The notes beneath the pieces are model-generated. The model had not been told where the DNA came from. It did not search any database and saw only the letters and a program-made list of their open reading frames with translations. Below are positions 14,153 through 61,970 of a DNA stretch of 64,000 nt, piece by piece. The position numbers and the translations under genes were made by a program. Within the stretch, counting starts at the first letter, position 1. Every line of letters begins with the position of its first letter. The DNA comes from a bacterium. Its GTDB lineage: Bacteria > Electryoneota > Electryoneia > Electryoneales > Electryoneaceae. The stretch is taken from contig OY769902.1 of NCBI GenBank assembly GCA_963669175.1, forward strand, positions 3,616,001-3,680,000. Direction: 5' to 3'.

Positions 14153-14168
14153 TGCAACCATCATGCCA
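14153..14168 (-). promoter_or_regulatory. Sigma54 (-24/-12) promoter
   Basis: Minus strand TGGCATGATGGTTGCA versus consensus TGGCACG-N4-TTGCW, with exact spacing. Confidence 0.75.
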
Positions 14169-21832: not shown

Positions 21833-21904
21833 TGACCCCTAGGGGAATCGAACCCCTGTTGCCGGGATGAAAACCCGAGGTCCTAACCACTAGACGAAGG
21901 GGTC
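21833..21904 (-). tRNA. tRNA-Glu(TTC)
   Basis: GACCCCTTCGTCTAGTGGTTAGGAC...TTTTCAT...GGTTCGATTCCCCTAGGGGTCA cloverleaf. Confidence 0.95.
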
Positions 21905-21968
21905 GTCAACAGCGCGTAAGTATAAGGTATCGGGAAGCGGAATTCAACCCATCCTACTCCTGCCTCCA

Positions 21969-22046
21969 TGGGGTCCGAGACGGGACTTGAACCCGTGACC
22001 TCCTGATCCACAGTCAGGCGCTCTAACCAACTGAGCTACACGGACC
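21969..22046 (-). tRNA. tRNA-His(GTG)
   Basis: GGTCCGTGTAGCTCAGTTGGTTAGAGCGCCTGACTGTGGATCAGG...GGTTCAAGTCCC...CCCA, with encoded G-1 and CCA. Confidence 0.95.
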
Positions 22047-26694: not shown

Positions 26695-26771
26695 TGGTAC
26701 GCCCGTTGGGACTCGAACCCAAAACCCCCGGCTTAGAAGGCCGGTGCTCTATCCGGTTGAGCTACGGGCGC
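26695..26771 (-). tRNA. tRNA-Arg(TCT)
   Basis: GCGCCCGTAGCTCAACCGGATAGAGCACCGGCCTTCTAAGCCGG...GGTTCGAGTCCCAACGGGCGTACCA. Confidence 0.95.
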
Positions 26772-26868
26772 ATTACGGTCGAGCTACCGTGCTCCTTCAA
26801 CCGTATCGCTTGGATGCTGTGAACGTCCATGAAGGTCATCGCACAGGCAATCCAAAGAAAAACAACGA

Positions 26869-26944
<76 letters not shown>

Positions 26945-57816: not shown

Positions 57817-58002
57817 GAAAGCCCTGCACCTCACGCAGGTTACAAAAGAAGAACCAACACTTTAGAAAAGGGAGTTCGACTTCGGTGGTGGCTGGCATGC
57901 CTCCCTGCCTCGCAGGCTAGAGGAAGTCAAATACTACTGGGCGGACACCCACCGTGTTGTACACGGTTCTCTCTTCTTTGCCTGTGGGGGTGTTGGGTTT
58001 TT
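57817..58002 (+). ncRNA. ssrS: 6S RNA
   Basis: ~185-nt rod (GCCCTGCACCTCACGCAGG pairs with CCTGTGGGGGTGTTGGG) with a central bubble; zapA-ssrS-rny synteny. Confidence 0.85.
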
Positions 58003-58032: not shown

Positions 58033-59601
58033 ATGTTAGGATACATCATCGCCGGGATCGTCGGCCTGCTGCTGGGCGTCGCGGTGGGAGCTGTTGTCGG
58101 CATTAAGCTGAAAACAGCCGAAGACAAGAAGAAGAAACTGACCGCTCAGCAGGAAGCGGATCAGATCCTGGAGATCGCCAAAAAAGAGGCTGATTCGCTG
58201 AAACGCGAAAAACTCCTGGAAGCCAGGGACGAAGCTATCGCCCTGAAACGTGAACAAGACAAGCAATACGATAAAAAACTTGATGAACTGCGATCAGAGC
58301 AGAAAAAATTGCACGATCGTGAAGTGGCGCTCGATCGTCGTTTTGAGAAAAACCGGCAGTTGGAAAAAGAACTGAAAGATAAAGATCGTGAAATAAAAAG
58401 GTTAATGCAGTCCAACCAGGACAAACAGGCGTTTCTCGATGATGCCGTAACCAAGCAGAAAGAGCTGTTGGAACGTACCGCCCAGATGACTCGCGAAGAG
58501 GCACTGGAGCAACTCAAGGGCACCCTGATCGACAAGGCGCGTCGCCAGACCGCGGAAACGATCAAGGAAATGCGCGATAAGGCTCGCCTGGAAGCCAACC
58601 GTGAAGCTCGTGAGATCATCATTCAGGCAATTCAACGTAGCGCAGCGGATCATGCGGCAGAGAACACCGTCACCGTCATCAACCTGCCGAACGATGATGT
58701 CAAGGGACGGATAATCGGACGTGAAGGCCGCAACATTCGCGCGTTGGAAGCGGCTACCGGCGTTGATATCATCGTTGACGACACACCGGAAGCAGTTATT
58801 CTTTCAAGTTTTGACCCGTACCGCCGTGAAATCAGCCGTATCGCACTGGAGAAGCTGATTACGGACGGTCGCATCCATCCTGCACGTATCGAGGAAGTGG
58901 TTGCCAAGGCTCAGAAAGAACTGGATGAACGTGTGCTCGAACTGGGTAAAAACGCCCTGATCGAAGCCAAGGTACACGGCCTCCATCCTGAATTGATAAA
59001 GTTGCTGGGACGTTTGAACTACCGTACCAGCTACGGCCAGAATGTCCTGAAGCATGTTACTGAAGTAGCGCACCTGTCCGGTCTGATGGCCATTGAGCTT
59101 GGTCTTGACGCCAAGATCGCACGCCGCGCCGGTCTGTTGCATGACATCGGCAAGGCGGTTGACCGGGAAAGCGAAGGCACCCACGTCAAGCTCGGCCTTG
59201 AACTGGCAAAGAAATACGGCGAAGGTGGCGTGGTTCAGAACGCGATCATATCGCACCATGAAGACGCACCACCGGATAACCCGATTTCCGTGCTGGTGCA
59301 AGCCGCAGACGCGATCAGCAGTTCACGTCCGGGCGCACGCCGTGAATCCTTGGAAGGCTATATCCAGCGTATGCACGGGTTGGAAGAAATCGCGTCCAAC
59401 TTCGAGGGCATCAACAAGGTTTTCGCGATCCAGGCAGGACGCGAGATCCGCTGCATCGTAGAGCATGAGAAAATCACCGATGCCCTGGCCGATGCGCTGT
59501 CCCACGACATCGCGGAAAGGATCGAGCATGAACTTGAATACCCGGGCCAGATCAAGGTTACGGTGATCCGTGAGTATCGTGCCGTGGATTATGCAAAGTA
59601 G
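58033..59601 (+). CDS. rny: Ribonuclease Y
   Basis: TM anchor, coiled coil, KH motif [15 protein letters not shown] motif GLLHDIGK and [12 protein letters not shown]. Confidence 0.97.
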
Positions 59602-59656: not shown

Positions 59657-59867
59657 ATACTATCCCATTGATAAATATTTTACTTAAAGAATCAAATTAC
59701 TCGAAACTCATATACTCAAACATTTTTGAGTTGAGTATAATTTCTATATTACTAAAGCTTGAGAATATTGCCAGTGACTCTAGAGTTGAAGATAATTAGC
59801 TGTCTCTATATTGACATTTGAAACTACATTTAGTATCATTTTTGTCAGTAAGAAAAAAGCGGAGACT

Positions 59868-60200
59868 ATGAGCAAAATCCAGAAGACTTTTGAACAGCTT
59901 ACGGGAAAAGGTAGAAAACTACCTAACGAAATCGAGTTTAAAGTTCTTAAAGATGTGCTCGAGGAAGCCGGATGTACAGTAACACACTTTCCAACTGGTT
60001 CACACTGGCGTGTAACCCATCCAGATTTATTTAAACACCCAGATTTTAGTAGATCAGGCCATTTTGAGATTCCAGTTCACGGTGGAAGACAGGGTGGTCA
60101 ACATGTCAGAAGAGCAAGGATCTACATACAGAAAGTTGCGAAAGTCGTGGAGTTCTTAAGGGAATACGAGGAGATAAAACGTGGAAAAGCAAGATCTTAA
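59868..60200 (+). CDS. HicA-like toxin
   Basis: Basic 110-aa protein with FKVLKDVLEEAGC..TGSHWRVTHP..IPVH..IYIQKV (HicA GSH motif); upstream of a HicB-like gene. Confidence 0.75.
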   Translation: MSKIQKTFEQLTGKGRKLPNEIEFKVLKDVLEEAGCTVTHFPTGSHWRVTHPDLFKHPDFSRSGHFEIPVHGGRQGGQHVRRARIYIQKVAKVVEFLREYEEIKRGKARS

Positions 60201-60765
60201 GGCACTTATCGATAGTCACTATCCTATTACACTTATCAAAACAGAAGATGGTATTGAAGGATGGTATGAGGATTTTGGACGTGGTACAACTGGTACCATT
60301 GCTGATACATTGGAAGAGGTTGTATTCGATCTAGAGAGTATTTTGATGAGTACTCTTGAGTATATGGTTGAACAAAGTCTCGAAATTCCTCAACCACATA
60401 GCGAAATAATTGATAACTTCAGTGGCCAGTTTATTGTCAGAGTCCCAAGAAGTTTGCATGCTGACCTTTCTAAAAACGCTAAAAGAGAAGGAGTTAGTTT
60501 GAATCTCTATGTAAATAATATTTTATCTGAACGCAATATGCTCAGTCAAGTCAATAATAAAATTAACAATTTACAATTAGGACACGATAAAATATTTGAT
60601 AAATTTCAATCCATTATACCTGAGCCAAAGAAAGACACCTATACATTTGATTATAATCCTACCCCTAGTCAATCAACAGCTTTGATATTGGAAATGAATA
60701 CACCATCGGTAAAAGGAGAAACCCAACCATGGTCAAGTAATAATTCAACCGCAAATTCGAATTAG
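60181..60765 (+). CDS. HicB-family antitoxin with C-terminal extension (candidate chaperone-addiction tail)
   Basis: N-terminal partial RNase H-like fold, IPQP, RHH motif FSGQFIVRVPRSLHADL...EGVSLN, then ~70 extra residues. Confidence 0.82.
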   Translation: MEKQDLKALIDSHYPITLIKTEDGIEGWYEDFGRGTTGTIADTLEEVVFDLESILMSTLEYMVEQSLEIPQPHSEIIDNFSGQFIVRVPRSLHADLSKNAKREGVSLNLYVNNILSERNMLSQVNNKINNLQLGHDKIFDKFQSIIPEPKKDTYTFDYNPTPSQSTALILEMNTPSVKGETQPWSSNNSTANSN

Positions 60766-60791
60766 AGTAAAGAAACTACTTGGAGGTAGCA

Positions 60792-61274
60792 GTGAGGTCA
60801 AAGGAAAATACGATTAGCTTTGAAGAAGCGAAAAACTGCCTCTCATACGAAGAATACAACCGTTTACTTTCGGAGTGTGAACTGCAGCAGATAGAACTGG
60901 TCAGTCTTTCTTCAAAGAAATTTGGATCATATGAAAATAAGTCCTTTAAATTGGAACCGAACTTAACACATAAATACTTTAAGACAAAGAAAAATCAATC
61001 CTATAAATTTGAGACTAATTTTTCTTTACATTCTTATGAGGCGAGAGATAATTCTAAGGGAAGTGATTCTAAGCGTGATAAACTAGTAGAGATACAGTGT
61101 AAGTATAATATCTATCTTACTACAGATAATGATTTACCTGAGGAATTTTTAGTAATTTACATTAACCTAACTTTAGGTTTAGTAATATGGCCTTTTATCA
61201 GAGAAATGGTTGTCGATATATCGCAAAAAATGATGCTACCACCTATCATTCTTCCTATGATAAGAGTAGGATAA
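60792..61274 (+). CDS. SecB-like chaperone (third component of a TAC system)
   Basis: GGAGG RBS then GTG; ELQQIELVSL...VEIQCKYNI...IWPFIREMVVDISQKMMLPPIILP resembles the SecB C-terminal (F/W)PY.RE...(G/M).PP..LP motif. Confidence 0.75.
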   Translation: MRSKENTISFEEAKNCLSYEEYNRLLSECELQQIELVSLSSKKFGSYENKSFKLEPNLTHKYFKTKKNQSYKFETNFSLHSYEARDNSKGSDSKRDKLVEIQCKYNIYLTTDNDLPEEFLVIYINLTLGLVIWPFIREMVVDISQKMMLPPIILPMIRVG

Positions 61275-61356
61275 CACAAAATCCCTTAAGATATTGATGT
61301 ATTGGTATTTCTCAAGACACCTAGAAATGGGTGTCTTTTCTCTTGCCATGAAGGAT

Positions 61357-61577
61357 AAAAAAAATCGGACGACCGAAGAGCCGTCCGAACAAGAGTATTT
61401 TCGAAAGTCAGTGGGAAGAGGCCACCTATCAACCACTGTCTTTCACGAAACCAGGGGAGGGCCTGGCTTCGCCATCCGGTTTCACCCGCTCGGGTGGCGA
61501 AACGTGGTGCGCCCTAGGACGCCGCATCCCCGCACCTAAACGTCTGTCGAAGCGCTCACACGTTTCGTCGCCCTTGC
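61357..61577 (-). ncRNA. Putative ~220-nt sigma54-dependent multibranch ncRNA with terminator
   Basis: GCAAGGG/CUCUUGU closing stem, four internal hairpins and terminator UCGGACGG..UCGUCCGA-U8. Confidence 0.6.
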
Positions 61578-61587
61578 TACACCTTTT

Positions 61588-61603
61588 TGCAAGCGACAGA
61601 CCA
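61588..61603 (-). promoter_or_regulatory. Probable sigma54 promoter
   Basis: Minus strand TGGTCTGTCGCTTGCA: GG-N10-GC spacing with perfect TTGCA; -24 partly degenerate. Confidence 0.55.
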
Positions 61604-61970
61604 GTTTGGTATTATCGGGCTTCTGGAGACCTCCCCTGAATATTTCACGAGATAGAACCTCTACTAGCAAACACATACATCATCACTAATCCGGGGCTGG
61701 GTATCCTGTGCACACAGGTGGGAACGACGTGCGCAGTTTTGTATTATTATCCGTCCCATAGAGTTGATTCACTGTATCAGCCCACCTTCCAGCGCAGTTG
61801 TCTTCATCCTGCAATGCCTGCTACAGTGAGAAGCAGACGAATTCTCCACGGGACTTTTTACCTTGGTTAGCGTAGTCCCCCTTGGTATATTAAAGGTTTA
61901 GAAAATTTGGGAGTTCATGGGAACTCCCGCATGGTTGTAACGTACCAAACGCAACACATATGGGGTCGCT

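Follow-up and report, generated by a model that had tools for sequence, protein, structure and literature searches.

The question raised by the locus described here is whether a short segment near one end of a 64,000-nt stretch of DNA (the window; positions 3,616,001 to 3,680,000 of contig OY769902.1, assembly GCA_963669175.1, from a member of the Electryoneaceae) is an RNA gene in its own right and, if so, how its product might act. A preliminary description, made from the letters of the window, had proposed a discrete noncoding RNA of ~220 nt, belonging to no known family and transcribed from a σ54-type promoter on the minus strand. In agreement with this proposal, we found no Rfam match, a single copy in the genome, a promoter box and a terminator in all eight homologues, and helices that covary, and we consider it very likely that this is a real σ54-dependent structured RNA gene. 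The overall explanation that we favor, with more confidence than doubt, is a stand-alone structured regulatory RNA, expressed from a σ54 promoter under the control of a bacterial enhancer-binding protein (bEBP), an RNA for which pairing with ribosome-binding sites is the preferred mode of action. Gene structure, promoter and activator-site architecture, fold, and distribution are readings of the sequence; the transcription of the RNA, the identity of its activator, its signal, and its targets are what we infer.

Promoter, terminator, and gene layout

The predicted RNA gene occupies positions 61577-61357 of the window on the minus strand, that is, 221 nt from the putative +1 to the end of the U tract (all unprefixed coordinates are window positions, and the genome of the window, a single contig of 5,447,365 bases that is 95.9% complete, is referred to as G000). 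The σ54-type −24/−12 box noted in the preliminary description, TGGTCTGTCGCTTGCA, is a sequence match at 61603-61588 on the same strand. If the C of its GC dinucleotide is taken as −12, the usual geometry of σ54 promoters places the start at G 61577, as had been predicted. By itself, the −24/−12 pattern is no commoner in the window than chance would give (7 matches, with 6.05 expected), and the weight of the promoter case therefore comes from conservation in relatives: GG-N8-TTGC is found in 8/8 homologues, 13 to 16 nt before the first conserved GGG, with a spacer of variable sequence. No σ70-like site was scored upstream on the RNA strand. The genome encodes rpoN (184.9 bits), and a tblastn search of G000 with a bEBP query gave 23 matches in about 22 genes. 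Elsewhere in the window, TGGCATGATGGTTGCA (14153-14168, minus strand) is closer to the σ54 consensus than the box of the RNA itself and may be another of the promoters listed in the preliminary description.

At the other end, the reported terminator hairpin with its U8 tract is present as an intrinsic terminator at 61388-61357, with a 10-bp stem and a 4-nt loop (61388-61365) followed by eight U residues (61364-61357). A stem-loop and a T run follow the core in 8/8 homologues, and RNAalifold predicts the terminator helix with compensatory changes. The segment had also been called GC-rich within AT-rich flanks; it is indeed GC-rich (GC fraction of 0.595 over 61400-61599), yet the AT-rich flank exists only downstream (0.29 to 0.375), with 0.48 to 0.50 upstream.

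The absence of a credible reading frame held up as well. An 81-amino-acid (aa) open reading frame (ORF) on the plus strand and a 66-aa ORF on the minus strand overlap the RNA, and a Pfam scan of these two gave no match; a third, of 46 aa on the minus strand, begins upstream of the predicted RNA start. Because neither scanned ORF has a Pfam match, the two closest copies (G000 and G001) are separated by single-base indels within the RNA, and, when read by eye, the short AUG-initiated frames are not conserved among the copies, a coding role of this region appears unlikely.

Homologues and relation to known RNA families

Three covariance models, built from the window alone (R1), from 5 sequences (R2), and from 8 sequences (R3), score the conserved core (61402-61577, 176 nt) at 231.2, 197.4, and 186.1 bits, respectively; their E-values come from a shortened calibration and are rough. 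While blastn found copies in four relatives, R2 gave solid matches among the 16 genomes of the family in G000, G001, G003, G004, and G010 and weaker ones in G006 and G007, of 59.7 and 40.9 bits, respectively. With R3 the last two score 89.5 and 81.0 bits, a rise that is not independent, since R3 was built from both. A search of 79 genomes of the phylum with R3 returned the same 7 genomes, all in one family (7/16), and no homologue in eight other families, represented by 63 genomes; many of these genomes are incomplete and the search used stricter filters, so that absence there is no proof. The RNA thus appears, from these searches, to be confined to one family of an uncultivated phylum, the family that includes Candidatus Electryonea clarkiae (phylum Candidatus Electryoneota, Fibrobacteres-Chlorobi-Bacteroidetes [FCB] group).

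One metagenome scan added a new copy on contig L017 (117.8 bits), which together with the 7 family genomes makes up the set of 8 homologues; it also returned a copy identical to that of G003 (L018) and a chance match (L016). RNA length in the relatives ranges from 190 to 234 nt. A first pattern scan of 185,579 species genomes yielded only contigs that were identical on alignment to the four blastn copies, and a second, looser one yielded three contigs, one already known and two (L080 and L081) presumed to be G006 and G007. A loose two-block pattern gave no further copy across the family. Two candidates were rejected as copies, namely, the blastn match in G029 and a site in G005 (28 and 24 bits) without a promoter box or the invariant blocks. 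With one match in the 5,447,365 bases of G000 and one per genome in the relatives, the RNA is no repetitive extragenic palindrome and no multicopy miniature inverted-repeat transposable element, the latter being an identity that the preliminary description had named as fatal to its proposal.

No known family accounts for the RNA. Rfam 15 (4227 models), searched at gathering thresholds over the whole window, left it unmatched and reported only 4 tRNAs and one 6S RNA elsewhere. When 61200-61800 was searched with E-values up to 10, the best models were sRNA71 (22.2 bits; threshold of 50) and the L20 leader (20.5 bits; threshold of 58.7), both scores being carried by the terminator, and no GlmY/GlmZ, Qrr, ribozyme, or riboswitch model was among the matches. 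A diverged housekeeping RNA was rejected, given that the 6S (64.4 bits), SRP (57.5 bits), RNase P (322.1 bits), and tmRNA (146.7 bits) genes all lie elsewhere in the genome. So was a CsrA sponge of the CsrB/RsmZ type, at which GGAUG motifs had hinted: the RNA has only two of them, and G000 contains no match to CsrA. An Hfq-dependent small RNA (sRNA) was rejected on the same kind of evidence (no match to PF17209 in G000); the controls of both searches did match. Full-text searches of the literature on the phylum, on σ54-dependent sRNAs, and on the discovery of structured noncoding RNAs returned no description of this RNA in the result listings and abstract openings that they covered.

A covarying fold with invariant loops

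The 231-nt stretch folds better than shuffled sequences (z = −3.12; 1/200 shuffles as good). In alignment A10, whose 8 sequences were fitted to the model and which hence favors the structure, standard pairs occupy 93.6% of 314 cells, and both sides have changed in 31 of 43 pairs. None of 500 shuffles reached these values, and sliding the 3′ partners by 1 to 3 columns lowered pairing to 37 to 43%. On a plain MAFFT alignment, RNAalifold predicted P2, P3, upper H4, and the terminator, with compensatory changes in 23 of 42 pairs. The covariation that the preliminary description had called for is therefore found in both the fitted and the unfitted alignments.

The helices it had drawn from a single sequence, namely, the long interrupted hairpin, CGAAGCCAGG/CCUGGUUUCG, and GAAAG.CAGUGG/CCACUG.CUUUC, are all present. 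The first is domain 1 (61492-61573, minus strand, as are all parts of the RNA), composed of P1 to P4. Its covariation is concentrated in P2 (61567-61559/61506-61498; 9/9 pairs changed on both sides) and P3 (61555-61552/61512-61509; 4/4 pairs), and P1 (GGG 61573-61571/CCC 61494-61492) and P4 (61544-61539/61523-61518) hardly vary. The apical loop of domain 1 (61524-61538) carries the block GCGGGGAUGC, of which GCGGGGATGC is invariant in 8/8 sequences; it could form a GGGGAU loop closed by GC/GC. A nearly invariant junction block, GGGUGAAACCGGAUGG (61472-61487), follows domain 1, with GGGTGAAA identical in 7/8 and CGGAT in 7/8 sequences; G004 is short of one C between these two motifs, G006 has AG for the final GG, and G007 differs over the whole block. 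Here CGG and CCG could pair as a 3-bp hairpin, or GGGUG may pair with CACCC instead. Hairpin H3 (CGAAGCCAGG/CCUGGUUUCG, 61446-61471) exposes the C/U-rich loop CCCUCC (61461-61456); it is missing in G006 and G007; counted over the remaining 6 sequences, pairing reaches 100% of cells, and 6/10 pairs have changed on both sides. Hairpin H4 (GAAAG.CAGUGG/CCACUG.CUUUC, 61403-61444) has changed on both sides in 11/11 pairs, and its apical loop (61432-61415) shows an invariant GGUGGCC followed by UCU (GGTGGCC in 8/8 and CCTCT in 7/8 sequences at the DNA level). The fold thus displays three invariant or near-invariant segments, GCGGGGAUGC, GGGUGAAACCGGAUGG, and GGUGGCCUCU.

One element of the preliminary fold did not carry over to the family. 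The outer closing stem, GCAAGGG/CUCUUGU, can form in G000 (7 pairs, 2 of them G-U, and present in the minimum free energy fold from +1) but is not conserved: when the 5′ 9 nt were compared with the linker before the terminator in each of the 8 RNAs, 64 to 195 of 200 shuffles were at least as good in 8/8 homologues, and we rejected it as a conserved helix. Judging from the aligned copies, the multibranch closure is specific to G000, and its conserved alternative is the local GGG/CCC closure of domain 1.

Activator sites and a putative shared regulon

A σ54 promoter fires only when a bEBP bound to upstream sites remodels the closed complex, and sites suited to this role are present. Two 17-bp palindromes, TGCGCACGTCGTTCCCA and TGTGCACAGGATACCCA, lie in tandem at 61698-61735 (minus strand), with a 4-nt spacer and 21 bp from center to center; their consensus is TGTGCAYGACATTCACA, and the pair begins 133 nt upstream of the −24 GG. 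The tandem pair is found in 8/8 copies. In 6 of them it starts 126 to 150 nt ahead of the −24 GG, and in G010 and G006, where site 1 has 1 to 2 mismatches, it is displaced upstream by another ~110 bp. A weight matrix trained on the RNA loci only gave the pair at the RNA locus the best tandem score in the G000 genome (36.5, against 22.7 for the next), and across the 16 family genomes the exact tandem pattern was matched 9 times, its reversed control not once.

The best single match to this matrix in G000 is located not at the RNA but at C1:4005213. This site ends 132 nt before a σ54 box, TGGCATGTGGGTTGCC (149 nt from start to start), which precedes a 71-aa Cys-rich ORF (CxxC...CxxC) with a GAGGAGG ribosome-binding site and no family match; the locus spans C1:4005213-4005695 (L069, 4214-4696), and a 273-aa YtkA-like ORF comes next. 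The 71-aa ORF is conserved in 15/16 family genomes, and a σ54 box precedes it in 13/13 complete loci examined (two loci were clipped). A palindrome scoring at least 18 is found upstream in 6 of these 13 loci (G000, G001, G003, G006, G008, and G010), and 5 of the 6 genomes have the RNA. G003 contains a further tandem activator site with a TGGTATGCTGATTGCC box (L100, 1501-1662; C161:56114-56275), followed by ~350 nt of AT-rich DNA before the next ORF, which may be another member of the regulon or another RNA. Since the same site precedes σ54 boxes at the Cys-rich ORF and at this second G003 locus, the palindrome appears to be a recurrent σ54 enhancer element of which the RNA gene is the most constant target. 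Likewise, the same site stands in front of the Cys-rich ORF promoter, which makes the RNA appear to be one of the outputs of a small bEBP regulon. A tandem activator-like site in G007 (L099, ~1501-1538; C5:2367-2404, minus strand) stands so directly in front of an ORF start that a σ54 box would not fit downstream of it, and may serve a divergent promoter.

Candidate activator protein

On L017, a gene for a protein with a PAS domain and a σ54-interaction domain is divergent from the RNA and starts 217 bp from the RNA start, with the palindromes between the two genes. No bEBP gene was found near the other RNA loci or the Cys-rich gene loci. Orthologues of the L017 protein (66 to 76% identity) occur in 9 family genomes, among which are neither G000 nor G001 (best match, 49%). 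G000 encodes a paralogue of the same architecture (C1:633230-634579, 449 aa), with orthologues (64 to 85%) in 9 other family genomes. By phyletic pattern alone, neither protein matches the distribution of the RNA: 4 genomes with an orthologue of the paralogue lack the RNA, and G007, which has the RNA, lacks such an orthologue. The union of both sets covers all 7 RNA genomes, along with four genomes that have the proteins without the RNA. Within G000, the 633-kb protein has the helix-turn-helix most like that of the L017 type (60 to 70% over 40 to 42 aa), and a bEBP at 5.26 Mb (C1:5260497-5261804) comes second; this likeness is suggestive only in pointing to the 633-kb protein as the activator. 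Taken as a group, PAS-sensor bEBPs of the L017/633-kb type probably include the activator.

In the region C1:630000-636400 of G000 (L030), the 633-kb gene sits amid two genes for ATPases of the MinD/ParA type that carry 4Fe-4S domains, one ATPase having been scanned with Pfam and the other judged from its N terminus. The same region holds a Gly-rich 90-aa ORF and a gene for a DUF1847 protein with a weak, below-cutoff Nitro_FeMo-Co-like match.

Mode of action

The next downstream gene is convergent with the RNA in 5 of the 6 loci whose downstream flank extends for 1 kb or more, and is co-directional in L017 only, where a 311-aa ORF lies 318 nt after the predicted RNA start. This arrangement fits a trans-acting RNA and not a leader, and a riboswitch or other cis-acting leader, for which a conserved co-directional downstream gene would be expected, was rejected. 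We regard it as probable that the RNA is a trans-acting regulator.

In the mechanism we propose, a bEBP bound to the two palindromes ~130 bp upstream would remodel the σ54 closed complex and so start transcription of the RNA, and the intrinsic terminator would end the transcript at ~221 nt. The long covarying hairpin domain, together with one or two more hairpins, would present GCGGGGAUGC, GGGUGAAACCGGAUGG, and GGUGGCCUCU, and the RNA would work in trans, being the RNA product of a small bEBP regulon that depends on a signal and that in G000 would include the 71-aa Cys-rich gene. Hfq-independent pairing of CCUCU (H4) and CCCUCC (H3) with GGAGG-type ribosome-binding sites would then lower the translation of targets. 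GGAGG or GAGGAGG precedes the start codon in most of the 13 upstream regions of the 71-aa ORF loci, and we prefer masking of ribosome-binding sites because both loops are complementary to sites of this type. In G000 and G001 only, the H4 loop matches the ribosome-binding site of the co-regulated 71-aa ORF over 9 bp. Base pairing as the main mode is put forward tentatively, at somewhat short of an even chance.

Several observations weigh against this explanation. The two most conserved blocks are G-rich, not C/U-rich, so that a seed directed at ribosome-binding sites leaves them unexplained, and H3, which has the best loop for this purpose, is missing in 2/8 copies. When 3425 approximate translation start regions were put through a rough duplex scan, none emerged as an outstanding target; because the C/U loops pair with every ribosome-binding site, such a scan cannot discriminate, and in it no complementarity to the mRNAs of the candidate activators stood out either. 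The covariation counts come from model-fitted alignments of only 8 related sequences. Regarding the activator, the only adjacent bEBP gene is that on L017, whose orthologues are absent from G000 and G001 and occur in 4 genomes without the RNA.

Of the alternatives to base pairing, an RNA that binds a protein (as a decoy, sponge, or scaffold, like GlmY, 6S, or CrcZ) survives best, although we rate it as distinctly less probable. Here, the helices would present GCGGGGAUGC, GGGUGAAACCGGAUGG, and AGGUGGCC to a protein whose titration or recruitment would be the output. This possibility is kept alive by the conservation of G-rich loop and junction sequences and by the dispensable H3, whose loss leaves the invariant blocks intact: blocks of 10 to 16 nt are invariant in apical loops and the junction while the helices covary freely, a pattern typical of recognition surfaces. 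GGUG recurs three times, and the duplex scan gave no convincing mRNA target. Yet we can name no partner (the genome has neither CsrA nor Hfq); the neighboring genes vary over the 8 loci, none of them being a constant companion of the RNA; and invariance among 8 sequences from a single family, with their limited divergence, is weak evidence. A related and rather unlikely reading is that of a new class of complex-folded regulatory RNA whose G-rich surfaces bind a protein or small ligand and which forms the main output of a PAS-bEBP/σ54 circuit, for example, by feedback on the σ54 machinery or on the Cys-rich protein. If this were true, a logic like that of GlmY or 6S would have been invented independently in an uncultivated phylum of the FCB group.

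Another self-contained RNA, be it ligand sensing, catalytic, or a conformational switch, is much less probable still. Under this explanation, the alternative pairings of CCC and GGCGUC would constitute the switch. The CCC after P2 has three mutually exclusive partners, each largely conserved: the 5′ GGG (91.7% of cells), GGGUG in the hairpin CACCC/GGGUG of the preliminary description (79.5%), and GGUGG of the H4 loop in a pseudoknot with CCACC (82.1%). At the apex of domain 1, GGCGUC pairs either with GACGUU, as in the model, or with GGUGC, as predicted by RNAalifold on the unfitted alignment, and invariant nucleotides in a junction and in loops, as seen here, typify tertiary folds. However, no compensatory change is seen in any of the alternative pairings, including the hairpin and the pseudoknot; no ribozyme or riboswitch model matches at E-values up to 10; and, of the 6 loci whose flanks could be read, 5 have no downstream gene that could be controlled in cis. 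That there is no independent RNA gene at all, but a cis leader or attenuator, a conserved DNA element, a short coding gene, or a mobile repeat, is highly improbable, because the co-directional ORF of L017 and the short ORFs overlapping the region on both strands stand against a single copy, a strong terminator in every copy, a convergent next gene in 5/6 loci, two ORFs without a Pfam match, single-base indels in the closest pair, and substitutions that preserve base pairs rather than a reading frame.

Comparison with known σ54-dependent and structured RNAs

To our knowledge, there are few σ54-dependent sRNAs, and almost all of them (GlmY/GlmZ and Qrr) belong to Proteobacteria. CrcZ is another of this kind. 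The features of σ54/bEBP-dependent sRNAs are found at our locus, with a −24/−12 box at the right distance, rpoN in the genome, and conserved activator sites at least ~100 bp upstream. We take the RNA to be a putative new RNA family within a known kind. Like GlmY and GlmZ of the Enterobacteriaceae, it would be a stand-alone gene for an RNA of roughly their size (~150 to 200 nt) with a −24/−12 promoter and an intrinsic terminator. According to PMC3045617, glmY has three TGTCN10GACA sites for the bEBP GlrR, lying over 100 bp upstream of its σ54 promoter. The likeness extends to this arrangement of several palindromic bEBP sites >100 bp upstream, since our locus has two palindromes of the TGT-N11-ACA type, 133 nt from the −24 GG. 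In contrast, the RNA itself shows no similarity in sequence or structure to GlmY/GlmZ (no Rfam match at E-values up to 10), the activator candidates carry a PAS sensor domain instead of a receiver domain, no overlapping σ70 promoter was scored, and the host belongs to another phylum and has a genome without Hfq.

Qrr RNAs are ~100 nt long, Hfq dependent, and multicopy. Our RNA shares with them the σ54/bEBP-dependent architecture and differs in being ~220 nt long and single copy, in a genome without Hfq, and in matching no Rfam model. A review (PMC13501541) presents the Qrr RNAs of Vibrio as σ54- and LuxO-P-dependent trans-acting sRNAs that are the main output of their signaling pathway.

With respect to the preferred mode of action, the closest parallels lie elsewhere. 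RsaE/RoxS and RNAIII of Firmicutes are Hfq-independent sRNAs whose C-rich loops mask ribosome-binding sites. The CCCUCC and CCUCU loops on stable hairpins, the use of GGAGG sites, and the lack of Hfq resemble this situation, whereas there is no homology, the best-conserved parts of our RNA are G-rich, and one C-rich hairpin is dispensable. 6S RNA (RF00013) is likewise structured, of similar size (~185 nt), and acts via protein binding, and a copy lies 3.4 kb away in the window; however, our RNA does not match the 6S model, is multihairpin instead of a single long bulged duplex, and occurs in a genome that already has 6S.

Candidatus Electryoneota has been described from metagenome-assembled genomes (PMC9324843 and PMC10439189). 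For such a lineage it is unusual that a whole control region, from activator sites and promoter to folded RNA and terminator, can be read from sequence. A second promoter with the same activator site turns it into a compact, testable circuit of a PAS-bEBP candidate, σ54, the RNA, and a Cys-rich protein, and a well-supported structured RNA family is added to the catalogues. The narrow distribution (7/79 phylum genomes) limits the wider impact for now.

Genomic neighborhood

The preliminary description had suggested looking for the RNA next to rfbB in relatives. This holds for 3/8 loci (G000, G001, and G003), in which the RNA and an rfbB-like dehydratase gene are divergently oriented, but not for the others, where the neighbors differ. 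On the other side of the RNA in the window, three ORFs at 59811-61274 on the plus strand converge on it and encode 129, 194, and 164 aa; the HicB domain of the second (60181-60765) was the sole domain that Pfam found in them. They are followed by a plus-strand terminator-like hairpin at 61314-61337, 27 nt from the terminator of the RNA. The 6S RNA of the window is matched over its full length by RF00013 (64.4 bits) at 57818-58002 (plus strand), 30 nt upstream of the RNase Y gene (58033-59601), and the four tRNA genes are arranged as two pairs, at 21833-22045 and 26698-26944 on the minus strand.

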